Of a DNA stretch of 64,000 nt, positions 1-55,021 are shown one piece after another; position 1 is the first letter of the stretch, and the number at the start of each line of letters is the position of its first letter. The notes beneath the pieces are model-generated. The model ran no database searches, was not told where the DNA came from, and saw only the letters and a program-made list of their open reading frames with translations. Origin of the DNA: an uncultured Bacilli bacterium. Its GTDB lineage: Bacteria > Bacillota_I > Bacilli_A > RF39 > UBA660. The position numbers were made by a program, and so were the translations under genes. The stretch is from NCBI GenBank assembly GCA_934131005.1, contig CAKOYV010000001.1, positions 79,868 through 143,867 of the forward strand, in the 5' to 3' direction.

Positions 1-279
1 ATAATTACTAGAAATAGCCGCCTCTAAGCCTTTTTCTAACTGAGGTACTAAATACTCTTCATTATTTGAATGCTGATTAACAACCTCTAAAGATAAATCA
101 GCCTCTCCCGCAGTACCTGCTATACTATTATTACTAGCTGTTAAAGCATAATAAGCATATGTTCCACCAGTTACTAACAATGCATAACAAAATATTCCTA
201 TAATTATTAAGCTAACTCTCTTTAGTTTAAGAATTTTGACCCCCCCCCAATTAACTTTTGGTTTATAATTATTTATCAT
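1..279 (-). CDS. 5' fragment of a SipW-signal/TasA-like + DUF285 surface protein paralog (runs off the window edge); ATG at 279 is out of frame with the signal peptide because of the G9 tract
   Basis: Positions 1-300 are about 90% identical to 19380-19690, the 5' end of the 17691-19665 gene. Minus strand reads GAGGT-N6-ATG ATA AAT AAT TAT AAA CCA AAA GTT AAT T-G9-TC AAA..., followed by the hydrophobic signal peptide and a GGTYAYYALTASNN motif. Confidence 0.55.
   Translation of the reverse strand, partial: MINNYKPKVNWGGVKILKLKRVSLIIIGIFCYALLVTGGTYAYYALTASNNSIAGTAGEADLSLEVVNQHSNNEEYLVPQLEKGLEAAISSNY
240..248. repeat. Homopolymer C9 (G9 on coding strand) within the first codons of the paralog
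   Basis: Nine consecutive C read directly; unusual in a genome this AT-rich. Same length and context as the tract at 19625-19633. Confidence 0.9.
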
Positions 280-397
280 AAATATACCTCTTATCTTTAT
301 CATATCTACTTACTATTTTACCAAAATATTTATAAAAAGAAAAGAGCAAATAAATCAATTTATCTACTCTCCAAAACAATTTAACTATCTATTCTAA

Positions 398-1312
398 TTA
401 CTTAGTCTTTTTTCTGCACAAAGAAATCCCCTCATTATAACTATTAGTAATTGACGGAAAAGTCTCTAGTGTATAGATATCTGGATAATGACGTAATAAA
501 TAAGAATTAATATCATAACCCTTATTATCTAATTCTATCATTTTATCAAAATAACAATAACAAACTCCAACTAAACCATTATCTTTAAGTTTAGAAAAAA
601 CATCTTTCATAATAAACTTATGAACCAAATTTTGTCCCTCTAATCCTTTTATATCATAATAATACTGTAAAACATTTGATAAATAAATAACATCAAAATA
701 TTTATCAGTAACATCCTTTAAATCAACAATATTTAAATCTTTAAAAACTACTAATTCATGTTTCAATCTTTCTCTTAAAATGGAATAATATTCTTGTTGA
801 TAGTATAAATTATATTCTTCTTGCAAATCCAAATTCTCTACTAAAGTACCTCTAATAAACATCGTCTCTCCAATCAACAAACAATTCTTGAAAACACAAT
901 CATAAACATAACTCCAAAATTTATAACTATCATCATCTAAATTACTACTTACTGCCTTAAAATTATCTCTTGCCAAAAAATCTTTACTACTTTTTGAAAA
1001 AAAACTTTTAAATGAATCTACATCAGCATAAGTCAAAATAGTTGCTTCCTTTAATGCTAACACATATTTAGCAAACTTATTATAATCAAAACTAACAACA
1101 CTATTTGCTCCTAACGAAAGAGCATTTAAAGCAAAATCTCCTCCTCCCGTAACACAAAGAACATCTTTCTCACGCACATCAAATATCTTAAAAATTTCTC
1201 TAAGTATTTCATTTGTTTCAACATAAACAGGAGAATATTCCAAAAAAGGAAACCCACTATTATCACTATTATACTTACTCTCAAGTAGACTATCTAATAC
1301 TTCTAACTTCAT
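398..1312 (-). CDS. SAM-dependent transferase, DUF3419/BtaA-like
   Basis: 304-aa ORF with motif LCVTGGGDFALNALSLGANSVVSFDYNKFAKYVLALKEA, resembling the nucleotide-binding and AVDLNxxQxxLLELK region of the DUF3419 family. Confidence 0.45.
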   Translation of the reverse strand: MKLEVLDSLLESKYNSDNSGFPFLEYSPVYVETNEILREIFKIFDVREKDVLCVTGGGDFALNALSLGANSVVSFDYNKFAKYVLALKEATILTYADVDSFKSFFSKSSKDFLARDNFKAVSSNLDDDSYKFWSYVYDCVFKNCLLIGETMFIRGTLVENLDLQEEYNLYYQQEYYSILRERLKHELVVFKDLNIVDLKDVTDKYFDVIYLSNVLQYYYDIKGLEGQNLVHKFIMKDVFSKLKDNGLVGVCYCYFDKMIELDNKGYDINSYLLRHYPDIYTLETFPSITNSYNEGISLCRKKTK

Positions 1313-1363
1313 ATCAAAAAAATACCAGTATGCCTATATAACACACTGATATTCAATCCCATC

Positions 1364-1900
1364 TTACTTCTCTTCAGCTTTAGCTTCTGTTTTCTTAGTT
1401 GCAGTCTTTTTTGTAGTTGTAGTAGCTTTCTTAGCAGTTGTTGTACTCTTCTTAGCAGTTGTAGTTTTCTTTGTAGTAGCCTTCTTAACAGTACTAGTAG
1501 TCTTAGCTTCACTCTTAGCACTAGCTTCTGGCTTATATTCCTTACCTTCTAAGCTATCACGACTAACACTAACTAACTTACTAAATCCTTCTTTATCAAC
1601 AATAGCCATTTCACTTAACATCTTTCTATTAATAGCAATTCCTGCTTTATTTAAACCATTAATAAACTTAGAATAACTAATATCATTCTCACGACATGCA
1701 GCATTTATTCTAGTTATCCATAATTTTCTAAAGTTTCTCTTATTTTGTCTTCTATCTCTATAAGCATATTGACCAGAATGCATAACTTGTTCATGAGCAG
1801 TCTTATATAATCTATGCTTACTACCAAAATAACCTTTTGCTTCTTTTAAAACTTTTTTTCTTCTTGCACGTGCAACAGTGCCACCTTTAACTCTTGTCAT
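1364..1900 (-). CDS. rplT: 50S ribosomal protein L20 with a roughly 60-aa K/T/A-rich C-terminal extension
   Basis: N-terminal 118 aa match L20 ([18 protein letters not shown]..); the tail is low-complexity [15 protein letters not shown]. Confidence 0.9.
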
Positions 1901-1917
1901 TTCTTAATATCCTCCTC

Positions 1918-2130
1918 TTAAATTACATCTTTAATTCTCTTATAATCTGAATTATGTAGTGTACTACCTTTTCTCTTTTGTCTACTTCTCTTAGCACTAT
2001 TCTTACCAGTATTATGATTTGTACCTTGACTAGTAATCTTTATAGAACCACTTTGTCTCTTCTTAAACACTTTACTAGCGCCACTATGAGATTTTAATTT
2101 AATTTTTTTCATTTTTACTTTCTTTGCCAT
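1918..2130 (-). CDS. rpmI: 50S ribosomal protein L35
   Basis: MAKKVKMKKIKLKSHSGASKVFKK is L35-like, in the conserved infC-rpmI-rplT order. Confidence 0.85.
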   Translation of the reverse strand: MAKKVKMKKIKLKSHSGASKVFKKRQSGSIKITSQGTNHNTGKNSAKRSRQKRKGSTLHNSDYKRIKDVI

Positions 2131-2150
2131 AACCTTATCTCCTTAATTAT

Positions 2151-2672
2151 TTATTTTTTAGGTGTTAGTTGCATAAATATAACACGACCTTCCATCTTAG
2201 GTCTAATTTCTACTTCTGCAATATCACTCAATGCTTCTTCAAACTTCATTAATACTTCCTTAGCAAGTTCAGGACGAGCAATTTGACGGCCTTTAAATCT
2301 GATACTTCCCTTAACTTTATCCCCACGCAATATTGCTTTACGGGCATTATTAACTCTTGTATCAAAATCATGCTTATCAATAGTAACAGACAATCTAAAT
2401 TCTTTTACATTAACAATAGACTCCCTCTGCTTCTTTTGTGCCTCTTTAGCCTTCTTTTTCTTTTCATACTTAAATCTATTATAATCCATAATCTTACATA
2501 CTGGTGGATTAGAACGATCATTCATCAACACTAAATCAAAACCAGCATAACCAGCTAAAGTCAAAGCATCTTTTTTTGACTTAAGACCCAATTGTTCACC
2601 ACTTGGTCCAATAACCATCATTTCCTTACATCTAATTTGCTCATTAATTAAGTTATCTCTATTGTTTGCGAT
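2151..2672 (-). CDS. infC: Translation initiation factor IF-3, probable non-AUG (ATC) start
   Basis: IF-3 motifs GEQLGL, PPVCKIMDY, IRFKGRQIARPE. GGAGGTG lies 6 nt upstream of an in-frame ATC at 2670-2672; the upstream ATG at 2726 has no SD and would add an atypical hydrophobic leader. Confidence 0.8.
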   Translation of the reverse strand: MANNRDNLINEQIRCKEMMVIGPSGEQLGLKSKKDALTLAGYAGFDLVLMNDRSNPPVCKIMDYNRFKYEKKKKAKEAQKKQRESIVNVKEFRLSVTIDKHDFDTRVNNARKAILRGDKVKGSIRFKGRQIARPELAKEVLMKFEEALSDIAEVEIRPKMEGRVIFMQLTPKK

Positions 2673-2917
2673 ATCAAACACCTCCATATAAACAAAAATG
2701 AATACAAGAAAGCTCGTATTCATCATCTATCCACATTATAATAATCCCAACTTAAATTATATATAACAATTGGCTTTAACCCATCACTATTCGTAATCAG
2801 GTGAGATAAATACATCTACTTTCCGCTTCGTTCTTGATAATTATAGTACAAATATATTTAATTGTCAACAAAATATTACCATTTCGAAAGAAAAGTACTA
2901 TTTTTTCTATAAAAAAC

Positions 2918-5098
2918 CTACAATCTATTAGGCTCTATATCAATTTCAACCTTAACCTTACTATTAGTCTTATAATGATTATCCAAATCAATAAGAACTT
3001 GCCTCAACTTATCATCTTTCTTATATTTTATAATACATTGCTGATAATAAACATTATTAACTCTAAAAACAGAAGCCATAGCTGGCCCTAGCACAAAAGT
3101 ACTACCTTCCAAATTATTTCTCAAATACTCTCCTACTTTATTAGCCTCCTTAAAACTAGCCTCATAATCCTTAGTACTAATACTAATTAAAATAATATAA
3201 TAATAAGGACTATAATTAAGTTTCTTTCTTATCTTCATCTCTTCCTTATAAAAAGACAAATAATCATGCTCACTAGCTAGTCTAATACTATAATGCTTAT
3301 CATTATAAGTCTGAATAACAACATATCCCAACCTATCAGCACGACCTGCTCTTCCAGCAACCTGCGATAATAACTGATAAGTACGCTCACTACTCCTAAA
3401 ATCAGGTATATTTAAACTAGCATCAGCATTAATAACTCCTACCAACGTAACTAAAGGAAAATCTAATCCCTTAGCAATCATCTGAGTACCAACTAAAATA
3501 TCATATTTATGTGAAGAAAAATCTTCAATAATTCTCTCATGTGCTCCCTTCTTAGAAGTCGTATCCATATCCATCCTAACAACCCTAGCATCATACCTAC
3601 GATTTAACTCTTCCTCCAACTTCTCCGTACCAAGCCCATAATCACCCAAATCATTACTACCACAGCAAGAACACTTCTCATATTTCAAAACAGCATAACC
3701 ACAATAATGACATCTAAGCATATTACTAGTCTTATGATAAGTTAAACTAATATCACAATTAGGACATTTAAACACCTCACCACACTTCTTACAAGTCAAA
3801 AAAGAAGAATATCCCCGTCTATTAAGAAGCAAAATTATTTGCTCACCCAACCTAAGCTTTTCTCTTATCTGCTCATCTAACAAAGAAGAAATAATAAAAT
3901 TCCCCTTCTTGACCTCTTCTTTCATATCAACTATTGAAACACTAGGCAACCTACCAGCTCCCGCTCTCTTTGTAAGCCTTAACAGCTCGTAAACATGATT
4001 ACCAGCTCTAGCCATACTCTCTAAAGAAGGCGTAGCACTCCCTAATAAAACAGGACAACTATGATAACGACTTCGCATCAAAGCAACATCTCTAGCATGA
4101 TACCTCGGATGATTATCTTGTTTATAAGTACTAGAATGTTCCTCATCAATAATTATAATCCCAAGATTCTTAATAGGTGCAAAAATAGCACTCCTAGCTC
4201 CTACAACAATATGAACATCCCCTCTAACAATACGCCTATATTCATCATACTTAGCAGCATCAGATAACCCCGAATGCAAAATAGCAACATCATCACCAAA
4301 ACGAGAAACAAACCTCGAAACTATCTGTGGTGTCAAACTAATCTCTGGCACCAACACAATAGCTCCCTTTCCCTTCTTAATAAAAGAAGAAATAATTCTC
4401 ATATAAACCTCAGTCTTACCACTTCCGGTAATTCCATATAACAAAAATGTTTTACTAACACCATAGCTATCAACAACCTTCGATACAACTAAAGACTGTT
4501 CCTCATTTAAAATAACCTTCTTATCACTAACAGAAGCTGAAAATTGGCCCCTCGAAGCCTCTTTTTCCAAAATTTTAACAAGTCCATGCTTAATAAGGGT
4601 CTTAATCGTACTATCAACCCGACTAATCTTAACACTTTCATTACTAATAAGTTGCTTAAGTATTAATACTTGTTTAGGATAACGACATTTATCTATATAC
4701 TCCATAACACAAGAAACACTACTATCAAGTACCAAATATTTATCAAACTTTATCCCTATATTAGTACCATACTTAGCCTTCAAAGCCCTAGGCAACATTA
4801 CCTGATAAGCACTAATTTTAGAACACAAAGTCTTCTTACTTATCTCATCTCCAAGCCATAGCATTTCCTTATTCAAAATAGGATAATCATCAACAAGCTC
4901 TATAATTGGCTTCAAATCATAGTCAACCGAAACATCATCTACTATCTCTAAAACAAAACCTTCTAAAGTTTGATGCCCAAATGAAACTTTAACTCGCTCC
5001 CCAACCATCACAGAACCACGCAAATTATCAGGAATACTATAAATAAAAGTCTTATCAACACTCTTAACACCAATCTCTACAATAACCTTAGCATACAA
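2918..5098 (-). CDS. priA: Primosomal protein N' (replication restart helicase)
   Basis: 726 aa; Walker A GITGSGKTEVY, DEEH box, CxxC zinc-binding pairs, C-terminal winged region. Confidence 0.9.
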   Translation of the reverse strand: MYAKVIVEIGVKSVDKTFIYSIPDNLRGSVMVGERVKVSFGHQTLEGFVLEIVDDVSVDYDLKPIIELVDDYPILNKEMLWLGDEISKKTLCSKISAYQVMLPRALKAKYGTNIGIKFDKYLVLDSSVSCVMEYIDKCRYPKQVLILKQLISNESVKISRVDSTIKTLIKHGLVKILEKEASRGQFSASVSDKKVILNEEQSLVVSKVVDSYGVSKTFLLYGITGSGKTEVYMRIISSFIKKGKGAIVLVPEISLTPQIVSRFVSRFGDDVAILHSGLSDAAKYDEYRRIVRGDVHIVVGARSAIFAPIKNLGIIIIDEEHSSTYKQDNHPRYHARDVALMRSRYHSCPVLLGSATPSLESMARAGNHVYELLRLTKRAGAGRLPSVSIVDMKEEVKKGNFIISSLLDEQIREKLRLGEQIILLLNRRGYSSFLTCKKCGEVFKCPNCDISLTYHKTSNMLRCHYCGYAVLKYEKCSCCGSNDLGDYGLGTEKLEEELNRRYDARVVRMDMDTTSKKGAHERIIEDFSSHKYDILVGTQMIAKGLDFPLVTLVGVINADASLNIPDFRSSERTYQLLSQVAGRAGRADRLGYVVIQTYNDKHYSIRLASEHDYLSFYKEEMKIRKKLNYSPYYYIILISISTKDYEASFKEANKVGEYLRNNLEGSTFVLGPAMASVFRVNNVYYQQCIIKYKKDDKLRQVLIDLDNHYKTNSKVKVEIDIEPNRL

Positions 5099-5129
5099 AA
5101 AATACCCCTCCTTCCATAAAAAATTAACT

Positions 5130-5567
5130 CTATTTAATAACTTCTACCTTAATCTTCTCATTTCTAAAACAAAACACTGTAAACTTATGTGAACACTTAG
5201 GACACTTACATACATGCTTTCCTCTTACAAGAGGCAATCTCAACACCGTCTTACATTTAGGACATTTACGATAAATATGTGTATTTCTATCACGCCATCT
5301 TACCTTAATTTTATCTATTCTTTTAAAAAATTTCTTTTTAAAATTCAAATAAACCATATTCTCACGCCTACGCTTATAAATATCACGTGACATCGCTCTA
5401 TAAACAATAATTATAATAAGTAAAGTCTCTATCAAACTAACAATTCTATTATTTGCAAAAATATTTATAAAAGACAACAAAACACATACAACAAGACCTA
5501 CTTTATAAACCTCATCAATTCCATATCTCCCCTGCATAAATTTATATACTTTATTAAAAAACTTCAC
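5130..5567 (-). CDS. Membrane protein with C-terminal zinc-ribbon (CPKC...CPKC)
   Basis: Two predicted TM helices followed by two CxxC pairs. Confidence 0.35.
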   Translation of the reverse strand: MKFFNKVYKFMQGRYGIDEVYKVGLVVCVLLSFINIFANNRIVSLIETLLIIIIVYRAMSRDIYKRRRENMVYLNFKKKFFKRIDKIKVRWRDRNTHIYRKCPKCKTVLRLPLVRGKHVCKCPKCSHKFTVFCFRNEKIKVEVIK

Positions 5568-5587
5568 AAATAATCCCTCTTTCTATT

Positions 5588-5902
5588 CTATAATTTTAAT
5601 TTCAAACGTGCTACTGGCACCTCTTGTTTATATTTTTCATTATATGCCATAATCATTCTAGAAAACATATCAAACATAACCTCATTTGTAGGAAATGGTT
5701 CAAAATAGCCATTTTCTATATAATATTTATAATAAGTATCAAATGCATTTTTAAAACCCAAACAATACCAAGTACCAAAAACATTTGGATCCAAAACAAC
5801 ACCATATACCTCTTCTTCATAAACCACTATCATATCTATAGCGTCACCAAAGCCATAACAATATTCTTGATATTCAAACGTATTTAACCTTTCTAATTCC
5901 AT
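5588..5902 (-). CDS. Hypothetical protein
   Basis: 104-aa ORF tightly linked upstream of 5130-5567. Confidence 0.3.
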   Translation of the reverse strand: MELERLNTFEYQEYCYGFGDAIDMIVVYEEEVYGVVLDPNVFGTWYCLGFKNAFDTYYKYYIENGYFEPFPTNEVMFDMFSRMIMAYNEKYKQEVPVARLKLKL

Positions 5903-6130
5903 AAAAAAGTACCTCCTAAATATTTATATAATATCACACTTTTCTCCACTTTAAAACCCGTAGTCAAAAATAATTAAATTTCCCTAAGTTTTTTAAATAT
6001 TTAGAAGGATTTTAGCTTTTTACCTAGAACAATATATTTAGAGGGACTAAATTCCCTCTAAACAGAAAGGAGGTAAATTATAGAAAAATTAACTGAAAAA
6101 GAAAGGTTAATTCCTTTAACCAAAGACTTT

Positions 6131-6994
6131 ATGTTTAAGCATATCTTTACCAACAATCCAGATATCCTAAAAAAATTCTTAATTGATGTTCTAAAACTAG
6201 ATATCAACCCTAACCTAGCTACTATCATTATCGAAAATAACGAACTTACTAAATCTAGGGAAAAAGAATATCAAAAGAACGTTGATATCTATGTTTCTAT
6301 TAATAATAACTTAAGAATTGATATTGAAGTAAACTCTGAAAAATTTAGCTCTATTAAAGCAAGAAATGTCTTATATTTAAATAAAATTGCTATTGATACA
6401 ACTGAATCAGGCTTTACTTATCAAAAAATGAACAAACAATATTTCTACCAACTAAACTTAAATGCTCATAAATCTGATAAATATTTAGACGAAGAATACC
6501 TACTCGTCTCTACAAATAAACACCAAATCTTACTAGATAATTATAAAATCATTTGCAAATCTCTTGATTATTACAAAGAACTTTATTATAATCAAGGTAA
6601 GAATTCAAGCAAAGATGTAATATGGTTATCTTTACTTGGAGCAAATAATTTTAATGAATTAGAGGAGATGGCAAGTTTAGTTATGGATGAAAATGAGAAA
6701 AACAAGTTTGTAAGTGAATGCAAAGATTCTAGTAAAAACACTAAATGGTTATCTGAATGGGGAACAGAATACTTTGCCGAAATGGTGAAACAAAACGTTA
6801 TCGAAGATGCTAAACAAGAAGGATTGCAAGAAGGATTACAAGAAGGATTAGAAAAAGGAATTAATCAAACAAAAACAGAAATGGTAAAAAAGTTATTAGA
6901 GCAAAAAGTATCTTATGAAATTATCGCTACCTCTGCATCAATTTCTGTTAAAGATGTAAAAAAGATAGAAAAATCCATACAAACTGGAGATTAA
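6131..6994 (+). CDS. Rpn/YhgA-like PD-(D/E)XK nuclease-family putative transposase (TIGR01784-like)
   Basis: N-terminus FKHIFTNNPDILKKFLIDVL and C-terminal QEGLQEGLQEGLEKG repeat are typical of this family. A strong SD (AAAGGAGG at 6066-6073) sits far upstream of the ATG with the frame open from 6077, so the true start may be a non-ATG codon near 6080. Confidence 0.6.
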   Translation: MFKHIFTNNPDILKKFLIDVLKLDINPNLATIIIENNELTKSREKEYQKNVDIYVSINNNLRIDIEVNSEKFSSIKARNVLYLNKIAIDTTESGFTYQKMNKQYFYQLNLNAHKSDKYLDEEYLLVSTNKHQILLDNYKIICKSLDYYKELYYNQGKNSSKDVIWLSLLGANNFNELEEMASLVMDENEKNKFVSECKDSSKNTKWLSEWGTEYFAEMVKQNVIEDAKQEGLQEGLQEGLEKGINQTKTEMVKKLLEQKVSYEIIATSASISVKDVKKIEKSIQTGD

Positions 6995-7021
6995 CTCTAT
7001 CTTTTTTTCTATTAATATTAC

Positions 7022-7456
7022 CTACTTTTTTCTACATTTATTATTTTTAATTAATTTCAAAATTCCAACAGAAACAGTATTATTCAAAACATCCTTATTA
7101 TTCTTACCTTTACGATTATTAGACTTAATAATCGCCTCATTAATTTCTAGTATACTACTATAATAATATCTATTAATAACCTCATCACTAATATTACCAT
7201 CACTCATCATATATTTAACTACCTCAAAATATTTAGAACAAGCTGTAAAAAAGCCAAATTTAAACCACGCTACATCTATTTCTCCTTCACCAAAACAATC
7301 ATTAATATAAAATTCCACATCAAAAAATATTTGTCCAACATCTACATAATAATTTTGCCTTTTCATATCCCTAATATATGAAATTCCATCCAAAAATCCC
7401 TTTTTATAGGATACATCACCAAATGTTTCTATCTTCTCTATTTTCACCCAAAACAC
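7022..7456 (-). CDS. Hypothetical protein
   Basis: 144-aa ORF convergent with the Rpn-like gene; no recognisable motif. Confidence 0.3.
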   Translation of the reverse strand: MFWVKIEKIETFGDVSYKKGFLDGISYIRDMKRQNYYVDVGQIFFDVEFYINDCFGEGEIDVAWFKFGFFTACSKYFEVVKYMMSDGNISDEVINRYYYSSILEINEAIIKSNNRKGKNNKDVLNNTVSVGILKLIKNNKCRKK

Positions 7457-7492
7457 ATCCTTTATTTAAATTTTAAAACGTTATACTATTTC

Positions 7493-8254
7493 CTATCCAT
7501 TTAAAAATTTTAATAGCATAAATAAAATTCCTATCACAAAAAACACCTTAGTCAAACGATTATAATTATACCTAAAAGAAGTAGGCAATAATTCAGACAG
7601 AGAAATTTCTAACATAATTCCTGCAATTAATGAAAATAACAATCCTAGTATAAAATCATTAATATAATTTATTAGAAAAAAATAAGTTATCAAAGCTCCA
7701 AAAGGCTCCGACAAAGCCGACACTAAAGTATAGAAAAATGCTCTAGCTCTACTTCCCGTAGCATAATATATAGGAACTGATATAGAAATACCCTCAGGGA
7801 TATTATGAAGAGCTATAGCAAAAGCTAAAGATGCCCCTAAAGAAATACTCTTAGTAGTAGAAATAAAAGTAGCTATTCCCTCAGGAATATTATGCATAAC
7901 AATAGCAATCATAGAAATAATTCCCACCTTATATAAAGATTTACCACCACTATCAGATAAATCAGGAACCACCCGTTCTATACCAATTGATAAAAATATT
8001 CCCACCATCACAAACAAAAAACACAACAATACTCGTACCACTTCGCCTATACCATCAAGCATTGATAAAGCTTCCGGAATAAGATCTGTAATGGAAACAC
8101 ATAACATAACTCCAGATGCAAAAGCAAGCGAACCAGCTACTACTCTATCTTTATTAGATGTTCTAACAAAAATAAAAAAAGTTCCTATCATAGTAGAAAG
8201 ACCAGCTAATATAGTTAATAAAAATGCTATCTTAATATTCATCATTATCACCAT
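7493..8254 (-). CDS. zupT: ZIP-family zinc transporter
   Basis: Eight TM segments, duplicated HNIPEG motif, histidine-rich loop. Confidence 0.8.
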   Translation of the reverse strand: MVIMMNIKIAFLLTILAGLSTMIGTFFIFVRTSNKDRVVAGSLAFASGVMLCVSITDLIPEALSMLDGIGEVVRVLLCFLFVMVGIFLSIGIERVVPDLSDSGGKSLYKVGIISMIAIVMHNIPEGIATFISTTKSISLGASLAFAIALHNIPEGISISVPIYYATGSRARAFFYTLVSALSEPFGALITYFFLINYINDFILGLLFSLIAGIMLEISLSELLPTSFRYNYNRLTKVFFVIGILFMLLKFLNG

Positions 8255-8287
8255 TAAATTATATGCTAAATCAATTACTATAATATT

Positions 8288-8644
8288 CTATTTTTTTATT
8301 ATCTTATACTTAACCTCTAACCATGAACTAAATGCTACCTGATAGGCCATTGTTCCAAATACAATTAAAACACTTCCACAAACAACCAAGAAAAATAACA
8401 AAACAAACAAATAATTATTACAAATATTAGAAACTATCATATTCATAATTGCAACTATACTAGGAACAAAACATAAAATTCCTACAAAAACACAAAAATA
8501 CATATTTAAACATGCCCGATGCCCAAATTTCTTACTTTTAAACTCAGTTTCCAACTCACAAGCTCTCTTAGAATCTAATTCATAAAAACTACTATATTCC
8601 CCATAATCTCTCTTATCACCTAATTTTTTAAACATCAATATCAC
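8288..8644 (-). CDS. Small membrane protein, hypothetical
   Basis: 118 aa, two or three TM segments; 6-nt gap to the next gene suggests an operon. Confidence 0.3.
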   Translation of the reverse strand: MILMFKKLGDKRDYGEYSSFYELDSKRACELETEFKSKKFGHRACLNMYFCVFVGILCFVPSIVAIMNMIVSNICNNYLFVLLFFLVVCGSVLIVFGTMAYQVAFSSWLEVKYKIIKK

Positions 8645-8650
8645 ACTTTC

Positions 8651-9010
8651 CTATTTTTTCATTTTTAACATATAATACCTAGCAAGTAAACCATAACAAA
8701 TTATTGTAAATAAAACAAGCAAAATAATTCCAACTACAATTCTAATTACCCAACTCCCAACTAAATACATAACAATAATATAAATAGTTGCAATAATAAA
8801 TGTATTAACTAAAGAATATGTATAAACAAACTTTTTATAATCTAAACTACCAATATTAATATTATATATCTTCTTAAGATAACTAGCCTCAGGCACTATC
8901 CTATCCTTCTGATATTTTTTATTATTTCTAACAACACCCAAATAATTAATTAAATATACTAATCCAAATACCCCTAAATATTCTAATAAAATATTCATCT
9001 CTACCTCCAA
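8651..9010 (-). CDS. Small membrane protein, hypothetical
   Basis: 119 aa, several TM segments; 3-nt gap to 9013-9594. Confidence 0.3.
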   Translation of the reverse strand: MEVEMNILLEYLGVFGLVYLINYLGVVRNNKKYQKDRIVPEASYLKKIYNINIGSLDYKKFVYTYSLVNTFIIATIYIIVMYLVGSWVIRIVVGIILLVLFTIICYGLLARYYMLKMKK

Positions 9011-9012
9011 CT

Positions 9013-9594
9013 CTAAGGAGCTAATTTCTTCATCTTTCCATGTCCAGCACTCTTAGGATCAAAATTATTTTCTAAATATCCATATCCATCGCTTTGTAAT
9101 TCTAAATAATAATCAGAGAAACCATAATAAGCTATTAAAAATAAAGTCATCATTTGATAATTATAAACAGCTTTATCAACCTCATCTTCTTTTATTTGAT
9201 CACTTATTTTCTTAAGAACATCATCATACAAATATTTAGAAATTTCCTCTCTTTGAGAATCATGATAAATAGACATTGCTAATATAGGTCCAACTGTATC
9301 ATAGCACTTTAATATATCATAATATTGCTCATCCTTCTGCAAAACATCATCTCTAAAATCTCGCAAATTATTCAAAACACAATCATCATCACTACGACCT
9401 AATATATCACAAACAATCGTCGTTATATAGCAACCACTACTTTCATTTTTCTTAAAAATAGGACATTTGCCATAGTTATAATCACGACAATATCTACGAT
9501 AAGTATCATCATCTACTCTTTTATCTTGTTTTATACACCAATAATCCCCAAATAATAATCCACTCTTATACTCATAAAATGTACAACTCACCAA
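9013..9594 (-). CDS. Cys-rich hypothetical protein
   Basis: 193 aa; eight Cys in the N-terminal 110 aa (CTF..YWC..YC..GKCP..GCY..VCD..DDC), acidic C-terminal half. Confidence 0.3.
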   Translation of the reverse strand: MVSCTFYEYKSGLLFGDYWCIKQDKRVDDDTYRRYCRDYNYGKCPIFKKNESSGCYITTIVCDILGRSDDDCVLNNLRDFRDDVLQKDEQYYDILKCYDTVGPILAMSIYHDSQREEISKYLYDDVLKKISDQIKEDEVDKAVYNYQMMTLFLIAYYGFSDYYLELQSDGYGYLENNFDPKSAGHGKMKKLAP

Positions 9595-9705
9595 ATCACC
9601 CTGCCTTTCTTAACAACTATATATTACTACGAGACCATAAACTAGTCAATAATTTAAATACTTAATCATTAGAAAAAGTAGGAATTAAGCAAAATTATCC
9701 TTACT

Positions 9706-12144
9706 TTATTTTTTTAAAACTTGCACATCTTTAGTACTTTGTAACCTATTTTCTACATAATCTAAACATCTATCATACTCATGCTTTGCCCTCTCATCAT
9801 AAGGAAGTACACAAGATGTGATAGTATTATCATTATTAAGTGCGATAAACCAATCATTATTACCAACAATATAACTAGTATCATCAACATTTATACTCTC
9901 ATAATACTCTTGTCTAAATTTAACTTCCTCTTTATCTAATCCCAAATAATTAATATTAGCATAATTTATTGCATTAACTATAAGACTAATTCTCTCTCTA
10001 TCACTCTCATTAGAGCTATCATATATATAAGGCTTAACTCTTTTTTGATAAAAATTATCACCACAATCCTCATAACTTATCTCCTTAGCACTACTACCCT
10101 TAGATACAATATAATTAGTAACTTCCTTCTTCATATAATCAGAATAAATAGTAGTATTAAGCGGTATAAATTTATCGAATACTATCTTATCATAACCTCT
10201 AAGCGCCATAAATGACTTAGCATGCATATCTGTAATTGTAACATAATCAATAGAATTATTATTATCAGAAGTCCAAACATCACCAATAGAAGAAATCACA
10301 TCCATTATCTTATTAAATTCATCTAAATCATCTATTTTAGGAGAAATACCATTAATATTAACCATATTACCTGTCCTAACACAAGGAAGTATATACTTAT
10401 TACTACCATGCCTTATAATAAGTATACTAGCATCATGATTAGTCAAACAATAACGGAAAAATTCTTCTCCTGGTCCACCAACTTTAAAACAATCCCCACC
10501 ATCAGGCCCTACTGCTAATAATTCTTCAGATGAAAAATTAGGAATTTCATATAAAACATCACCAATTTTACCACTAATAGTAGGAATCGAACTAGAAACC
10601 TTACGTTTTCTCTCTTTATGTAAATCTAAAACACGCCTAACAATAACTTCTAAAGGCTCACTAAGAAACTGACGTGAATTTAATATTTTAGATAATGTAT
10701 TTAAAGTAATATCTAACTCATCAGGTTTTAAATTATAAAGTAAAACTTTAGAAAAATCAATCAAATCTAACAAAGAAGCACTTGATAAATCAATATTTCT
10801 TAATTTATCAAAATTATTAATAACATTATAAACCTCATCATTAAGACCAAGTGCTTGTTTATTAAAAATCATTCTCATTAAACAATCATTATTCCTTTTA
10901 TAATTACCAAGCAACAACTTCGTTAAATCCCTATTCTCAATAACTTGCCCATTCTTACTTAAATCACATTTAATATCTACCCTAATAAATTTATCATAAA
11001 GCTCCCGAACACTAAGTGGCTTCTCTCTCTTAATACTATCATAATACATACTATTCTTAAGAATTTCCTTTTTCATACAAGAAATTTCTCGCTTCTTTAT
11101 CTCAGCCATAATAGTCTCTCTAACAAACTCTAACAACTCATCATAATTATAAAACTCTGGCAAAGATTTCTTTAATTTATCAAAAAATTTCTTAACATAC
11201 TCTAAATCATTACTCTTACAAATATTAAAAAGTATCTCATAATTATCCATAGAAACACTTTCTACCACTTCATTTTCCATTCCATGATAATAAAACTTAT
11301 CTTGATTCTTTAGCCTATAATCTCGTCTATCATCCAAAGCAAGCTCACAACTAGCCCGATTAATAGAAGCCTTAGTAGAATAAGTATAAAAATCCTCTAT
11401 TATTTTCTTACTATTATCATATCCAAAAATAGTATATAACTTAATAGCCGTTAAAAATAATTCCTTATTGCTACATTCTCCCTCTTTATCCATCAAAAAG
11501 CCTATTAAATTATTTACATGTTTTCTATTAATATCTACTAATAAATTATAATCCAAATAAACATCATCATCAAAATATAAATAATTACTTTGATTACGTT
11601 TAACCTCAACTAAAATATTAAATTTACTATAAATAAACAATTCATATTTATTCTTAATTTTACACAAATAAACATCATTATATAAAGAATTATTCTTAAT
11701 CAAAGATTCTAAATAATCAGAAACCTTAAATTTATCTATTTCTCTATCATCACCCATAAAATCAAAATTATACTTCTTAACTAACTCATCAAACTTATCA
11801 TAACTAATTTTTTTAAAATAATTACTAAGCATCTCTTTTCCCGGTACCGAAGAAGATAAATAAGGGCTCTTAAAAATATAATCTAAAACAGAATTATCCA
11901 AAAGTTCTAACAAAAGCTTACCTCTTACATTATTAGGAATCATCATTACTCTAGAAAATAAAATCTCATCATCTAAAATAACCTTCTTTATCTCAAAAGA
12001 AGCATTTAAAAATAATAAATTTAACTTATCTAAACTAATGTCCCTAATAGAATCTAGGGCATCCATAAATTCTTCCAAACTAATATTTCTAAAATATTTA
12101 ATTAAATCAACTATTGAAAATTCTTTAATATCCATAACTATCAC
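9706..12144 (-). CDS. Large hypothetical protein (812 aa), start abuts the tadA stop
   Basis: Long uninterrupted ORF in a 28%-GC genome; its start codon directly follows the tadA stop (12144/12145); no recognisable motifs. Confidence 0.4.
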   Translation of the reverse strand: MIVMDIKEFSIVDLIKYFRNISLEEFMDALDSIRDISLDKLNLLFLNASFEIKKVILDDEILFSRVMMIPNNVRGKLLLELLDNSVLDYIFKSPYLSSSVPGKEMLSNYFKKISYDKFDELVKKYNFDFMGDDREIDKFKVSDYLESLIKNNSLYNDVYLCKIKNKYELFIYSKFNILVEVKRNQSNYLYFDDDVYLDYNLLVDINRKHVNNLIGFLMDKEGECSNKELFLTAIKLYTIFGYDNSKKIIEDFYTYSTKASINRASCELALDDRRDYRLKNQDKFYYHGMENEVVESVSMDNYEILFNICKSNDLEYVKKFFDKLKKSLPEFYNYDELLEFVRETIMAEIKKREISCMKKEILKNSMYYDSIKREKPLSVRELYDKFIRVDIKCDLSKNGQVIENRDLTKLLLGNYKRNNDCLMRMIFNKQALGLNDEVYNVINNFDKLRNIDLSSASLLDLIDFSKVLLYNLKPDELDITLNTLSKILNSRQFLSEPLEVIVRRVLDLHKERKRKVSSSIPTISGKIGDVLYEIPNFSSEELLAVGPDGGDCFKVGGPGEEFFRYCLTNHDASILIIRHGSNKYILPCVRTGNMVNINGISPKIDDLDEFNKIMDVISSIGDVWTSDNNNSIDYVTITDMHAKSFMALRGYDKIVFDKFIPLNTTIYSDYMKKEVTNYIVSKGSSAKEISYEDCGDNFYQKRVKPYIYDSSNESDRERISLIVNAINYANINYLGLDKEEVKFRQEYYESINVDDTSYIVGNNDWFIALNNDNTITSCVLPYDERAKHEYDRCLDYVENRLQSTKDVQVLKK

Positions 12145-13645: not shown

Positions 13646-15796
13646 TTATTTTTTAGCTTCCCTTTTCTTATCTGCTACTAAAACATCACGACGTGACAAA
13701 TTCAACTTACCTTTCTTATCATAGCCTGTAGCCTTAACTAAAATCTCATCACCAACACTAACAACATCGCTAGTTTTTCCAACACGCTTAACATCAAGTT
13801 GTGAGATATGAACAAGCCCTTCACAACCAGGCCATAACTCTACAAAAGCACCAAAGTCTTGAACTGAAGTAACCTTAACTTTATAAGTTTTACCTATCTC
13901 AACCTCACGAGCAACATCTTCAATCATCTTAATTGTTTTTCGAATAATTTCAGGATCCGTATGATAAACAATTACTCGTCCATCATCCTCTAAATCAACC
14001 TTAACAGCATCTTTATCTTGAACTGTCTTAACATGAGAAGCTTCTAAAATAATCTTCGTAATCATCTCTCCACCACGTCCAATAACGTCCTTAATCTTTT
14101 CTGGATTAATTGTTATTGTCTCTATCTTTGGTGCATACTTAGACAATTCAGTTCTAGGCACTTCAATGCACTCAGCCATAACATCTAATATTTGCATTCT
14201 AGCCTTTTTAGCTTGTGCCAAAGACTCCTCTAAAATCTCTCTAGTAACACCCTTAATCTTAATATCCATCTGCATTGCACAAATACCTTCTCTAGTACCT
14301 GCAACCTTAAAATCCATATCTCCCATATGATCTTCTAATCCTTGAATATCTGTAAGAATAGTATACTTATCTCCCTTAGTAATTAAACCCATAGCAATTC
14401 CTGCAACTGGAGCCTTAATAGGAACACCTGCTGCCATCAAAGATAAACATCCCGCACAAATAGATGCCTGACTACTAGAACCATTACTTTCCAAAACATC
14501 ACTAACAACACGAATTGTATATGGAAATTCTTCCTCACTAGGAATAACTTGAGCCAAAGCTCTCTCTCCCAAAGCCCCATGACCAATCTCACGACGACCA
14601 GGAGCCCCATATCGACCAGTCTCTCCTACACAAAAAGCTGGAAAATTATAATGATGCATAAATCTCTTTTCATCTTCAATACCTAAACCATCCAAAATTT
14701 GATGTTCTCCCAAAGCTCCCAATGTTGTCGTAGATAAAACTTGCGTTTGCCCTCTAGTAAACAAACCTGAACCATGAGTTCTTGCTAAAATATCAATCTC
14801 AGCCGAAAGAGGTCTTATCTCATCCATCTCTCGACCATCAGGTCTTATATGTTCATCAATAATCAAATTTCTAACACAATCAGCTTCAATATTATCACAA
14901 ACACTCTTAACATCCTTCAAAATGTCTGATAAATTGTCATCATCTTGATACTTATCTTCAAAATATTTTATTGTATTTTCTTTTATCTCATCAATTTTCG
15001 CATATTTTTCTAATTTATCCTTAATTTTAATCGCATCAAGCATATCATTACCTATATGATTTTGAACTTCTAAAACAAGTTCTTGTGGAATAGATTTTAA
15101 AACAACTTCAATTTTTTCACGGCCCACTTCCTTAACAATTTCTTCTTGAAAAGAAACTAGCTCACGAATAGCCTCATGTCCAAACATTAAAGCATCTATC
15201 ATTAACTCTTCACTAACTTCACTCGCTCCAGCTTCAACCATATTAATAGCATCTTTCGTACCAGCTACTGATAAATTAATATCACTACGTTCTAACTCAT
15301 CACAACTAGGATTGATAATAAATTTACCATCAACATGCCCAACAACAACCCCAGCAACTGGACCATCAAATGGAATATCACTTATCATTAAAGATAAAGA
15401 TGAACCAAACAACGCTGTCATCTCTGGCGTACAATCTTGATCAACTGACATAACAGTATTAACAACTTGAACTTCATTTCTAAAACCATCAGCAAACAAA
15501 GGCCTAATAGGTCTATCTATCAATCTAGCAGCCAAAATAGCCTGTTCCGTAGGACGTCCCTCTCTTTTTATAAAACCTCCCGGAATCTTACCAACAGAAT
15601 ATAATTTTTCTTGATAATTTATTGTAAGAGGAAAAAAGTCAGCAGAAGTAGTATTTTTACTCATGACACTAGCCGTTAATATAGCCGTATCATTATATCT
15701 AACCAAACATGCAGCATTAGCTTGCTTAGCAAGTCGTCCTACCTCAACAACAATCTTTCTACCTCTAAAATCTAATTCAAACTTTCTCTCTTCCAT
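13646..15796 (-). CDS. pnp: Polynucleotide phosphorylase
   Basis: Two RNase PH domains, KH and S1 domains. Likely start is the ATG at 15796 ([10 protein letters not shown]) preceded by AGGAGAGGA; the upstream ATG at 15820 lies in the rpsO terminator hairpin. Confidence 0.9.
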
Positions 15797-16345: not shown

Positions 16346-16831
16346 TTATAAATTAAATAAATATAAATTCTCTTTATATTCCATATTATCAAGTTTAAAA
16401 CAACAAGTGTCAATCTGTTTACCACCACATTTTTCATAAAATTTAGTTGCGGAATTTTCTTGTAGAGTACTAATTAAAACATTATCATAAATACCTTTAA
16501 GTTTGGTAAATGAATATTCAAGCAACTTTCTTCCAATACCTCTTTTTTGATATTGAGAGTCTATATATAAAGCATACACTTCTGCATATTTTTCATTATA
16601 GCCTTTTTTGTTTTTTCCACATCTAAGGAAGCCAACCACTTTATTTTCTATCTCACAAACTATGTACTCATTTATTTTATTTTTGCACTTTTCTATACTT
16701 TCTGATTTTTTTTGTTCTAATTTTTCCAAAAATTCATTTGGAAATATCCCATGATAAGTTTTTACCCAACCATTAATATTAATATTTACTATACTTTCCG
16801 CATCTTGTTCTTTTGCTTCTCTAATTATCAT
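16346..16831 (-). CDS. GNAT-family N-acetyltransferase
   Basis: QKRGIGRKLLEY acetyl-CoA-binding motif. Confidence 0.7.
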   Translation of the reverse strand: MIIREAKEQDAESIVNININGWVKTYHGIFPNEFLEKLEQKKSESIEKCKNKINEYIVCEIENKVVGFLRCGKNKKGYNEKYAEVYALYIDSQYQKRGIGRKLLEYSFTKLKGIYDNVLISTLQENSATKFYEKCGGKQIDTCCFKLDNMEYKENLYLFNL

Positions 16832-17157: not shown

Positions 17158-17451
17158 TTATGTTGGTGATAATGGAACAGCTTTTATAGGCCAATTGCCT
17201 TTATATATGTCAAAAATTTTCTTTACTGCTTCTTCACTAACTTTTTTTCCTTTATAATTATTTAGAACAAACATTTCACTTATTTCGTAATTATTTTCTG
17301 AATTGTCGTCTACTAATACAAATTCTAAAATATCATTGCCTGATTTAATAAAATATGCATAATCATTATCAAAATATTTATTCAAATCATATTCACATAC
17401 TTTTGAGTCAAAAGTAATTGGAAAATATAAACTTAAATCATGTAAATACAA
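17158..17451 (-). pseudogene. Short GNAT-like ORF with TTG start; possible remnant. The ORF-free 16860-17157 region carries an APH/kinase-like remnant (..IIDFDFS..).
   Basis: GNAT-like C-terminal pattern (FVLNNYKGKK) but only 97 aa, no ATG and no SD. Confidence 0.25.
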
Positions 17452-17690: not shown

Positions 17691-19665
17691 TCAAGATTTA
17701 ACAATAATATTACTACTACTAACTCCCGTAAAATTCTTATCAAGTATCCAATTCTTCTCAACTTCAGACTTAACATAAATAGTAGGTGTTTTTTTAGTTT
17801 TTATAAAATCATTATATGAATTAACTGTATTAAAATCAAAACCTGTTAAATCTAAAACTAAATTATCACTTTCATACCCTGTTCCACTAAACATATATGT
17901 TACATCAGTAACATTTGAAGTATCAAACTTATCATTCAATTTTAAAGAGAAATTTTCACTATTAAATCCTGTTTGGAAAAACATCCATCGCATTTTTGTG
18001 ACATTAGAAGTATCAAATTTATCACCTAAATCAAAAGTAAAATTACGACTAGAATAACCAACTTCCTTAAACATATACTCCATATTTGTAACATTAGAGG
18101 TATCAAATTTATCTCCCAAATCAAGTGTAAAATTAGAAGAATTTTTCCCAACATTTGCAAACATATTAGCCATATTTTTTACATTTGAAGTATTAAACTT
18201 ATCTCCTAAATTTAGTTGAAAAACCTTACTATTAGTACCACAGCCGCTAAACATCCCCCACATATCAGTGACATTAGATGTATCAAACTTACTTCCTAAA
18301 TCTAGAGAAAAAACTTCACTATTAGTACCACAACCATTAAAAAAATAAAACATATTTATCACATTATGTGTATCAAATTTATCTCCCAAATTAAGAGTAA
18401 AATTTTTAGCATTATTCCCTGTTCCAGCAAACATTCTCTCCATATTTGTTACACTAGATGTATCAAATCTATCACCCAAATCTAAAGTAAATACATCACT
18501 TACATTGCCAGTCGACCAAAACATCATATCCATATTTTTTACATTTTTAGTATTAAATTTATCACCTAAATCCAAAGTAAAAACAGAATCATTCTTACCA
18601 GTATTATAAAACATACCATTCATATAAATAACATTTCTTGTATCAAACTTATTACCTAGATTAAGAACAAAAACTGAACTACTACTTCCTAATTCTCTAA
18701 ACATATCTCTCATAGTTGTAGTTTGAATTGTATTTAAATTATCAAAAGATATACTATCTACCTTTGTCATATTTTGAAAAAATTTAGATAAATCTTTAGC
18801 ATATATTTCCTTCTTACTTCCTATATATAAATCATAATATCCATCACTACTATTATTATTAAGCCATGCTACTATACTATTATCCCCTAACTCTGATGCA
18901 TCCCACTGTACAACAGCATTACTTGTATCTATATAATCAACAAATGAAACATTCTTAATCTTTTCTCTATATTCATCACTTCTAAAAGTATCAGCACTTA
19001 TATTTTTCATATAATTAAACTCTCCAACCGTAGAAGTTACACCCGTTCCATTTGATGAAGAGAAATCAATCGTTGCATTATATTTTCCTGTATCTGGTTG
19101 ATTTTTATCTACTTCATCTATCCAAATAACCATATAATAAGTCTTTGATGCTCCCTTTCTCAAAGTTAAATCACTATCAAATCTAGCATCATCTAAACTA
19201 GCATAATGACTACTATACTTACCATAAGTATTTTTATCTTGAATAAGTCGCCATTTCAAGTTTGGCATTTTATCTATATTTCCAAAAGTTATAGTACCAT
19301 TTATTTTAACAGTAGCTGTCCCCGTATTAGTTATTTTAATAGAGTAAACTTGACAAACCGTATTATTATTATCATCAACACAATTATAATTACTAGAAAT
19401 GGCCGTTGCTAAGCCTTTTTCTAATTGAGGTACTAAATACTCTTCATTATTTGGATGTTGATTAACAACCTCTAAAGATAAATCAGCCTCTCCAGCAGTA
19501 CCGGCAATACTATTATTACTAGCTGTTAAGGCATAATAAGCATACGTTCCACCAGTTATCAACAACGCATAACAAAATATCCCTATAATTATTAAGCTAA
19601 CTCTCTTTAGTTTAAGACTTTTGACCCCCCCCCGAATTAACTTTTAGTTTATAATCATTCATCAT
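17691..19665 (-). CDS. Surface protein: SipW-type signal peptide + TasA-like domain + DUF285 repeats; annotated ATG (19665) is frameshifted relative to the body by the G9 tract
   Basis: About nine roughly 22-aa repeats LxLGDKFDTSNVTxMxxMF (DUF285-type). N-terminus GGTYAYYALTASNN...CVDDNNNTVCQVYSIKITN parallels the tandem paralogs at 22889-27800. GAGGT-N6-ATG ATG AAT GAT TAT AAA CTA AAA GTT AAT TC-G9-TCAAAAGTC; the signal-peptide frame begins after the tract. Confidence 0.6.
19625..19633. repeat. Homopolymer C9 (G9 on coding strand) in codons 11-14 of the DUF285 gene
   Basis: With G9 the ATG frame terminates after 17 codons (MMNDYKLKVNSGGGQKS*); G8 would fuse the ATG to the signal peptide and full ORF. 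Confidence 0.9.
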
Positions 19666-19756
19666 AAGTATACCTCTATTCCACTTATTTTCTTACCATA
19701 ATAATACCACATTTTACCAAAAATTAAAAATGTATTTCTCACTTTCTAAAAATAAA

Positions 19757-22888: not shown

Positions 22889-23623
22889 TTAATCAAATGT
22901 TGCTTTAATTTCATTACCCTCAGCCGTTACAAACGTAGCTTCTCCATTAAATACATGTTCCATTCCCTGCATATAATCTTGAGAAGTACCATCATCATAA
23001 ATCCATATCATAACATAAAAATCTCTACTAGTTGCCACTTCTAAACCACTCTTATCTGCACCACCAATTTGTTCATTAGAAACAAACAAACAATCATAAT
23101 CATCTTTATGATTAAAACCACCTTCATTACCATTTCTAGAACCAGTCTTAATCACTGCTCTCTCATCAAAACTATCATCCTTAAAATCGTCTGTCGTATA
23201 CTTAGTTGTAAATATTTCCTTATCTTCCGATACTTTTTTAGGATAAACTCTAGTAAATCTAGCCTCTACGCCATCCTTTGTCTCAAAAGTTATATAACCA
23301 TCAACAAAAAACACATCATCTTCGCCACCACTAACAGTAATTTTATATATTTGACATCCAGCATTGTTATTATCATCTAAACACAACTGTTCAGATGCAT
23401 GTGGGGCTTCACTATTTTTCATTGGAACTAAACCATTTATTATATCAGCCATTGTTACCCTTGAAATAGCCATACTAAAACTAGTTGTTTCACTTCGTCC
23501 TCTAACAGTATTTCCATCTTGACTACTAGCTGCAAAATAAGCAAATGTAGCCCCTATTATTATAATTGACAAAACCATACAACCAACAAACAAATAAAAC
23601 ATTTTCTTATTACTATTATTCAT
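22889..23623 (-). CDS. TasA/camelysin-like secreted protein with SipW-type signal peptide (divergent, short member)
   Basis: IIIGATFAYFAAS after a K-rich n-region and hydrophobic core; CLDDNNNAGCQIYKITV; C-terminal ...ATFD. Confidence 0.55.
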   Translation of the reverse strand: MNNSNKKMFYLFVGCMVLSIIIIGATFAYFAASSQDGNTVRGRSETTSFSMAISRVTMADIINGLVPMKNSEAPHASEQLCLDDNNNAGCQIYKITVSGGEDDVFFVDGYITFETKDGVEARFTRVYPKKVSEDKEIFTTKYTTDDFKDDSFDERAVIKTGSRNGNEGGFNHKDDYDCLFVSNEQIGGADKSGLEVATSRDFYVMIWIYDDGTSQDYMQGMEHVFNGEATFVTAEGNEIKATFD

Positions 23624-23644
23624 AGCATCACCCTATTCTAAAAA

Positions 23645-23673
23645 CATTATAACAAATAGGCACTAAAAAAACA
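23645..23673 (-). promoter_or_regulatory. Sigma-A-type promoter of the 22889-23623 gene
   Basis: TTGTTT-N17-TATAAT on the minus strand, followed by AGGGTGAT-ATG. Confidence 0.5.
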
Positions 23674-23705
23674 ATACAAGACTTAATTTTTGTATTGTTT
23701 TTAAA

Positions 23706-24665: not shown

Positions 24666-24671
24666 GTATTA

Positions 24672-24719
24672 AGTATACCAAAAAAGCAAGAAAAAAACAA
24701 CACAAAATTTGCATTGTTT
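24672..24719 (-). promoter_or_regulatory. Terminator hairpin plus embedded promoter between paralogs (same layout at 25691-25738 and 26733-26761)
   Basis: Hairpin AAACAA(C/T)ACAAA-ATTT-G(C/T)ATTGTTT with a U-run on the minus strand. The 3' arm TTGTTT serves as the -35, then N17, then TATACT, then SD AAGGAGG-ATG. Confidence 0.5.
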
Positions 24720-24727
24720 AAATCAAT

Positions 24728-25663: not shown

Positions 25664-25746
25664 TCTCTCATCCTCCTCTATTATGAAATAAGTATATCAA
25701 AAAAGGAAGAAAAAAACAATACAAAATTTGTATTGTTTAAATTAAT

Positions 25747-26706: not shown

Positions 26707-26852
26707 TATTATCTATCCTCCTTACTGTAACAAGTATAACAAATTTAATTTTAAAAGACAATATCTTTTTCACATTTTAAAAAAAAATTTATCTAAACAT
26801 CAAAAAAGAATACATATTTCTATGTACACTTTTTATCATAAACTAAATATTA

Positions 26853-42759: not shown

Positions 42760-42893
42760 ATATTTAATCATCCTCTCTTGCAATTGTTAATAACTTTTAT
42801 TAACTATAAATAATATAACACCTCATTTAGCAATTGTCAATAAAGATTGCTAATTTCTTAAAAAAGAAAGATAAGCCATCAAAATAGCCTATC

Positions 42894-43142: not shown

Positions 43143-43144
43143 AA

Positions 43145-43417: not shown

Positions 43418-43499
43418 TTATTACTCCTCCTTTGCTTTTAATCATGACCTATCATACCATAAACTACAAGCCATTGTCAACCTTTTTGTGTTACAAGCA

Positions 43500-43920: not shown

Positions 43921-43951
43921 CCTTTTCTAATTTAAATAACTTTATCTAATA

Positions 43952-54857: not shown

Positions 54858-54877
54858 AAATGCCTCATCTACAGTTA

Positions 54878-54982: not shown

Positions 54983-55021
54983 CTTTTTTATTTATAACAA
55001 ATTTAAGTTTCATAATATTCA

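Follow-up and report, generated by a model that had tools for sequence, protein, structure and literature searches.

Two minus-strand genes in the 64-kb stretch of DNA analysed here (the window; 28.5% GC), designated gene A and gene B, open with closely similar leaders, each interrupted at the same place by a run of nine G residues. The question raised by this locus is whether such runs are sequencing or assembly errors, relics in decaying gene copies, or switches by which members of a protein family are turned on and off. All tract data come from consensus assemblies of short-read metagenomes, the contigs having been assembled from gut metagenomes of the Hadza and of other human cohorts. The closest PriA is 71% identical, and related gut metagenome-assembled genomes carry the labels ‘uncultured Bacilli/Tenericutes’, Clostridium sp. 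CAG:302/CAG:914 and Firmicutes bacterium CAG:321.

Two G9 tracts in a duplicated leader

Alignment of window positions 1–291 with 19,386–19,677 gave 92.4% identity over 289 columns, with one 1-nt gap, bearing out a sequence-only reading of this DNA that had noted a duplication of about 90% identity between 1–300 and 19,380–19,690. Similarity between the two genes starts at the Shine-Dalgarno sequence (core GAGG on the minus strand, at 287–290 in gene A, 7 nt 5′ of the ATG, and, from sequence and alignment, at 19,673–19,676 in gene B); 5′ of this point the sequences are unrelated (53%). In both genes the ATG is followed by ten codons and then by exactly G9, as had also been described, the tract occupying codons 11–14 and appearing as C9 on the plus strand (240–248 and 19,625–19,633). 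The window holds no other G/C run of ≥7 nt and both tracts lie at the same codon position of their genes, while base composition predicts ~0.02 runs of ≥9 nt across the 64 kb, and the two tracts and the duplication can therefore be considered real rather than products of chance.

The reading frames of the two genes at the tract differ. Only the first 93 codons of gene A (1–279, minus strand; ATG at 279–277) lie in the window, which the gene exits at the left edge. Here the tract is read as GTT AAT TGG GGG GGG GTC AAA, forming part of a Trp-Gly-Gly-Val stretch within the leader's positively charged N-region, and all 93 codons are free of stops; the product begins MINNYKPKVNWGGVKILKLKRVSL and, translated with G9 in frame, its leader is MINNYKPKVNWGGVKILKLKRVSLIIIGIFCYALLVTGGTYAYY. 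As it is in frame with G9, gene A is predicted to be ON. In gene B (17,691–19,665, minus strand; ATG at 19,665, stop at 17,691), the corresponding codons are AAT TCG GGG GGG GGT CAA AAG TCT TAA. An extra C (G on the plus strand, at 19,634) precedes the G9, so that the whole tract spans 19,625–19,634, and shifts the frame: the product, MMNDYKLKVNSGGGQKS, ends after 17 codons and gene B is predicted to be OFF. A 644-codon ORF goes on in the −1 frame beyond the tract, and deletion of one G would give a protein of 657 aa; for gene B to be ON with its own leader, C+G8 or C+G11 would be needed.

The predicted state of the window is thus gene A ON and gene B OFF, with the tracts in frames that differ by 1 nt, and the earlier idea that both genes keep a common OFF length does not hold. 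Gene A had been taken to be frameshifted by its G9, but the peptide quoted for it, MINNYKPKVNWGGGQNS followed by a stop (…WGGGQNS), is the product of a G10 allele, which is found in other samples and absent from the window. Two of the differences then listed between the copies (CCA versus CTA and ATT versus AGT) are genuine substitutions, whereas TGG versus TCG reflects the 1-nt difference in length.

Complete gene A and its surroundings

Contig L071, from a Hadza gut metagenome, was reached in public assemblies through the DUF3419 gene next to gene A and then through protein P0007; it is 100% identical to window positions 1–10,279 and continues leftward. On this contig gene A is a complete ORF, not a truncated remnant, with G9 and a 536-aa product identical to P0007. 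Locus A sits between the DUF3419 gene and a HerA-like gene. Products of 527 aa and 565 aa proposed by gene callers start at a TTG beside the tract; this start was rejected as an annotation artefact because the Shine-Dalgarno sequence lies ~40 nt upstream of it. Promoter and terminator scans around gene A and gene B performed no better on this AT-rich DNA than on shuffled sequence, and for this reason no promoter is claimed for either gene.

Directly left of the window and downstream of gene A, L071 (11,696–21,611) carries genes for a HerA/DUF87-type ATPase, a 217-aa ORF, a signal peptidase, a DUF5305 protein and a 2,275-aa protein with Flg_new repeats. The third of these (14,291–15,421) encodes an archaeal/SipW-type signal peptidase I (TIGR02228, 81.9 bits, cut-off 51.85) of 376 aa, with the peptidase I match in its C-terminal half, and the DUF5305 gene comes next. 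These genes look like a secretion/processing and surface-protein cluster.

Two adjacent minus-strand ORFs resembling GNAT acetyltransferases (16,346–16,831, 161 aa; 17,158–17,451, 97 aa) are found just downstream of gene B, the shorter of which may be a fragment or part of a split gene, as it matches only part of the Acetyltransf_1 profile. A second HerA/DUF87-like ATPase, of 630 aa and with weak TrwB/AAA_22 matches, is encoded on the minus strand at 33,710–35,602. The window also contains dispersed direct repeats (6,545–6,823 and 43,501–43,779, 279 nt, 91.8% identity; 43,811–43,960 and 54,873–55,026, ~150 nt, 87%), with the copy at 43.5–43.96 kb in a stretch lacking any ORF of ≥100 aa (42,784–43,951).

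Tract length and coding state at locus A

The homopolymer at locus A is kept in other strains, with lengths of G9, G10 and G11 among independent assemblies. G9, the ON form, is present in the window/L071 and in L002, L067 and L066; G10 (L001, L072 and L073) and G11 (L003) are OFF. While G9 gives the 536-aa product, G10 and G11 give peptides of 17 and 19 codons, respectively. The sequences around the tract are nearly invariant: L071 and L073 have no mismatches in 4,512 nt and differ solely in G9 versus G10, L067 and L072 are distinguished by one SNP plus the tract, and L001, L002 and L003 by 12–27 SNPs in 20.9 kb, with the tract as the only internal indel. In all three haplotype groups, then, the tract is the sole indel across 4.5–21 kb, and these near-invariant flanks of G9, G10 and G11 contigs imply at least four independent changes in length on three haplotypes. 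This pattern is the signature of a hypermutable site, and recurrence on three haplotypes would point to high mutability of the tract.

In the protein database, 11 contigs have gene A called at full length (536 aa) and ~22 have it called in a truncated form (502–527 aa). Locus A is thus OFF in about two-thirds of contigs, which makes OFF a normal state of a functional gene. The features by which contingency loci are recognized are seen together here, namely over-representation of a 5′ coding homopolymer of ≥7 nt, length differences between near-identical strains and toggling between a full ORF and an early stop.

State of gene B and further paralogs

With its own leader, gene B has C+G9 (OFF) in all four assemblies read, including L004, L005 and L006, and is called truncated on ~25 contigs; an ON form with this leader was never seen among these four assemblies and ~25 contigs. 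The 657-aa protein P0129 appeared to be a candidate, but was rejected as it comes from L066 (ERZ28614378), in which the upstream flank and leader of gene A are joined to the body and downstream flank of gene B. L005 (ERZ28615708) has the reciprocal join, which would delete 19 kb of essential genes including priA, infC, rpmI, rplT, pnp and rpsO, and the join in L066 would loop these same 19 kb. Both contigs are most likely assembly chimeras formed via the 0.9-kb 5′ repeat, although L066 might conceivably represent a tandem duplication. Treating L005 and L066 as chimeras means that gene B ON has not been observed.

The leader, tract included, recurs in at least five or six paralogs, so that the further copies anticipated by the sequence-only reading do exist. 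A 297-kb conspecific contig, which also encodes the products of genes A and B, has a second locus beside pheST with three tandem paralogs (C, D and E). Their leaders (Shine-Dalgarno, ATG, 10 codons, TTC-Gn-TC) have C+G9, C+G10 and C+G10, respectively, and all three are OFF. ON alleles with the C-type leader (…KVNSGGVK…) occur in related clusters, represented by P0002, P0006, P0008, P0014, P0156 and P0160, and P0156 and P0160 share a 90% cluster with P0011, which is OFF. L074 has a paralog beside uvdE that is ON with G10+C and is followed by a paralog lacking the tract. The same contig (6,597–7,725) has a poly-G leader with C+G9, out of frame and therefore OFF (MNSGYKLKVNSGG·VKSLKLKRISL…), on a body that is not DUF285 but a glycine-rich-domain protein (PF12810, ALK_LTK_GRD), indicating that the switchable leader is modular. 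L075 has, in other genomic surroundings, a homologue with 61% identity whose G9 tract leaves it ON. Relatives without the tract include P0005, P0010, P0019, P0020 and P0022.

Across the family, the rule predicted from reading frames is that a (C)+G total of 9 or 12 corresponds to ON. In each OFF copy, 482–644 codons beyond the tract are free of stops and a difference of one or two G separates the gene from ON, and pairwise dN/dS between paralogs is 0.10–0.52. P0013 begins MFINQKLIRGGVKSLK, from an ATG in another frame upstream of the tract, so for some alleles two of the three phases of the tract may be compatible with ON; this P0013-type frame is closed in gene B, where the CTA codon, which is CCA in gene A, gives rise to a TAA.

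Probable concerted evolution of the 5′ domain

The region that the paralogs have in common extends well beyond the 300 bp originally proposed, to ~0.9 kb (about the first 300 codons), and covers the leader and the N-terminal domain. dS between paralogs is 0.13–0.27 in this 5′ part versus 0.7–1.26 in the repeat part. Differences between gene A alleles of different strains all fall within the 5′ 900 nt (21 versus 0 and 10 versus 0), and form blocks that match other paralogs, with a 10-site B-like patch in L067 and L072 and a D/E-like patch in L001–L003. The contrast in dS, the restriction of allelic differences to the 5′ end and the paralog-matching blocks all suggest concerted evolution of the 5′ domain. 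They support a role for gene conversion, already suspected from the shared 5′ end and compatible with both the SNP mosaics and the dS contrast, which would keep the 5′ ~0.9 kb alike while the repeat domain diverges. Switching between repeats during assembly may contribute something to the mosaic pattern.

Protein family, predicted fold and leader

With one G removed, gene B matches Pfam DUF285 (PF03382; E 6.7e-43, 145.7 bits, cut-off 25) and the NCBIfam PARCEL repeat (TIGR02167; 62 bits, cut-off 30), and gene A carries PF03382 in the contig annotation. Membership in the DUF285/PARCEL (BspA-like leucine-rich-repeat) family is thus given by cut-offs that gene B exceeds and by the listing of gene A under PF03382. 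An AlphaFold model of the gene A product (mean pLDDT 78) has an N-terminal helix (residues 15–50), a β-sandwich predicted with moderate confidence (~60–200) and a repeat solenoid from about residue 230 (pLDDT >90). A Foldseek search of this model against the PDB gave no match at E ≤0.001, the only hits being weak ones to FimA, an archaeal filament and the TasA fibre. A profile search with the N-terminal domain against PDB sequences returned nothing meaningful, a scan with this domain found no relative among GTDB species representatives, and the leader had no exact-pattern match in JGI metagenomes.

The leader consists of an N-region rich in Lys/Arg, with Trp/Ser-Gly-Gly contributed by the tract, then a hydrophobic helix and then GGTYAYYALTASNNSIAGTAGEADLSLEV. 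Its motif GGTYAY…ADLSLEV resembles, by eye, a TasA-type signal plus first strand. The first 93 aa of gene A have no match to TIGR04088 at E values up to 10, and the match of the leader to Peptidase_M73 (PF12389) is sub-threshold (E 0.022, 15 bits, cut-off 22.5). By inspection, no lipobox ([LVI][ASTVI][GAS]C) is found in MINNYKPKVNWGGVKILKLKRVSLIIIGIFCYALLVTGGTYAYY, where the sole Cys is preceded by G-I-F, and no known wall anchor is present. Proteins of the gene A/B family are putatively secreted or membrane-anchored and surface-exposed.

The minus strand at 22,889–27,800, ~3 kb upstream of gene B, is occupied by five paralogous ORFs in tandem (244, 319, 311, 319 and 315 aa). The four long ones have 70–78% mutual identity, and none of the five has a Pfam match. 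Their leaders (IIGATFAYFTATQTN..TITGNAASINFGL) score 14.3–18.6 bits against TIGR04088 (SipW-dependent-type signal), below the cut-off of 19, and these ORFs may encode TasA-like secreted or fibre subunits.

Proposed mechanism and alternatives

The findings are probably explained by a family of genes under slipped-strand, translational phase variation, the 5′ 0.9 kb of which is homogenized by gene conversion. Each leader comprises a Shine-Dalgarno sequence, ATG, 10 codons and a homopolymer of G8–G11 in the N-region of a signal/anchor peptide, where slipped-strand mispairing at replication would add or remove single G residues. A (C)+G total of 9 or 12 would place the ATG in frame and give the full protein, and at other totals translation would end after 17–19 codons; changes of ±3 would merely add or remove one Gly in the leader. 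With a separate tract in each paralog, different subsets would be expressed across the cell population, and gene conversion would keep the first ~0.9 kb similar as the repeat domains drift apart. Tract polymorphism, its effect on the frame, the number of family members and the intact ORFs of the OFF copies are seen directly in the sequences, whereas reversibility and the rate of switching within a clone are inferred, and the selective benefit would probably lie in immune, phage or adhesion variation.

If, instead, tract length were fixed, the calls of 9, 10 and 11 and the frameshift in gene B would be sequencing or assembly errors. G runs of ≥9 nt are error-prone on Illumina, the evidence comes from assemblies alone and the family does suffer misassembly, as in the chimeric L005 and L066. 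However, four assemblies, made in different projects with different assemblers, all give C+G9 for gene B, so that calls are reproducible per locus, and identical truncated products were found again on 8, 5 and 4 contigs. Random assembly noise is also unlikely since no second indel was seen across 20.9 kb, a region that should hold many A/T runs (there are 232 of 6–9 nt in the 64-kb window), and the tract lies at the same codon in at least six paralogs and in the 61%-identical homologue. An artefact is thus very improbable, and with G9, G10 and G11 at one locus, at least five or six paralogs and both ON and OFF forms, the view of the tracts as marking a small family of surface proteins that can be switched independently is upheld; the sequence-only reading was wrong about the frame of gene A and essentially right in its overall interpretation. 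We consider it unlikely that gene A is the functional copy and B to E are dead, frameshifted ones, perhaps serving as donors for gene conversion. In favour of this reading, no ON form of gene B with its own leader was seen in the four assemblies and ~25 contigs, the single genome read for C, D and E has all three OFF, the patches in the gene A mosaic correspond to B or D/E, and for most drp genes of Mycoplasma agalactiae phase variation was judged ‘unlikely’ and a reservoir role proposed (Nouvel et al., PMC2824730). Against this, none of the OFF copies has acquired a secondary stop or frameshift in its 482–644 codons, dN/dS is that of the range given above, every copy is within two G of ON, C-type ON alleles exist in the same 90% cluster as an OFF protein and locus A itself is OFF in most contigs.

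Constant low expression by recoding has also to be considered. Long homopolymers are slippage sites for RNA polymerase, and slippage of this kind, or ribosomal frameshifting, could allow the tract to tune dosage and not to act as a switch, in keeping with the conservation of the OFF ORFs. Differences in length are, however, seen directly at the DNA level and are enough to explain the states, and known productive transcriptional slippage is mainly on A/T runs. Recoding in place of switching thus seems extremely unlikely, though it could coexist with phase variation. A broader and rather doubtful proposal is that the poly-G leader is a portable, switchable SipW/TasA-type secretion module placed on varied passengers (DUF285 leucine-rich-repeat adhesins and the glycine-rich-domain protein), with the β-sandwich joining, by donor-strand exchange, a TasA-like fibre made of the five tandem SipW-signal proteins at 22.9–27.8 kb, so that phase variation would pick the decorating adhesin. 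Were this true, an uncultured lineage of the human gut would have a Gram-positive or wall-reduced counterpart to the tip adhesins of pili that are subject to phase variation.

Slipped-strand phase variation as proposed here would mean that mutation-based switching has been naturally sampled in uncultured, reduced-genome human-gut Bacilli (in Hadza and other cohorts), and the family could be used as a marker of ON/OFF population dynamics straight from metagenomic reads. It would also point to DUF285 proteins as surface molecules under fluctuating selection by antibody, phage or attachment. For annotation, the lesson is that gene callers split or truncate such genes (503, 527 or 624 aa in place of 536 or 657 aa), and for assembly, that chimeras form through the common 0.9-kb 5′ domain.

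Comparison with known systems

No paper connecting RF39 with homopolymeric tracts or BspA came up in our literature search, and none joining homopolymeric tracts, phase variation and metagenome-assembled genomes. The nearest parallel is in M. agalactiae, where the PARCEL/DUF285 lipoproteins MAG1330 and MAG3260 have an N-terminal poly-G tract (Röske et al. 2010, PMC2996958). Between two strains of this species, genes for surface lipoproteins differ at their 5′ ends by G8/G9 and similar changes, and a DUF285 ‘drp’ family was described with silent copies proposed as a reservoir (Nouvel et al. 2010, PMC2824730). Common to that system and the one described here are DUF285/PARCEL repeats, a multigene family with many silent copies and rearranged paralog loci. 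The host here, however, is not a Mycoplasma but an uncultured gut member of the Bacilli that uses the standard code, table 11 yielding long ORFs, and the proteins lack a lipobox, having instead a charged N-region, a hydrophobic helix and GGTYAYY, reminiscent of SipW/TasA-type leaders. They also have an extra β-sandwich domain of ~200 aa, and tract polymorphism is documented in many natural samples.

In loci of the M. capricolum type, the mutable repeats are TA or homopolymer tracts in the promoter, controlling transcription. Such loci, and those of other mycoplasma variable lipoproteins, share with the present family a 5′ cassette carrying a mutable simple repeat on diverse bodies and combinatorial ON/OFF expression, but here the repeat is inside the coding sequence and would act on the reading frame. 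The account given in PMC2996958 of the modular contingency-gene repertoire of M. capricolum (Wise et al. 2006) likewise places the repeats in 5′ flanking regions.

With respect to tract type, there is a resemblance to the poly-G/C loci of Gram-negative pathogens. Campylobacter jejuni, Helicobacter pylori, Neisseria and Haemophilus have G/C homopolymers of ~8–13 nt in the 5′ coding part of surface-structure genes, in low-GC genomes; strain differences of ±1 cause frameshifts, switching rates have been measured there and the products are glycosyltransferases, outer-membrane proteins and restriction-modification systems. Tract type and ±1 frameshifts are the same here, while the gene products differ. 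Likeness to Bacillus TasA/camelysin lies in the SipW-like peptidase gene near gene A and the five ORFs with near-threshold SipW signals, although the gene A leader itself scores below the models; TasA is not known to be phase-variable by a homopolymer. The mechanism is thus that of a classic translational contingency locus, and what is new is the lineage that hosts it, a SipW-like leader that is not of the lipoprotein kind, the occurrence of this leader on different bodies and the population-level evidence for ON and OFF states from metagenomes.
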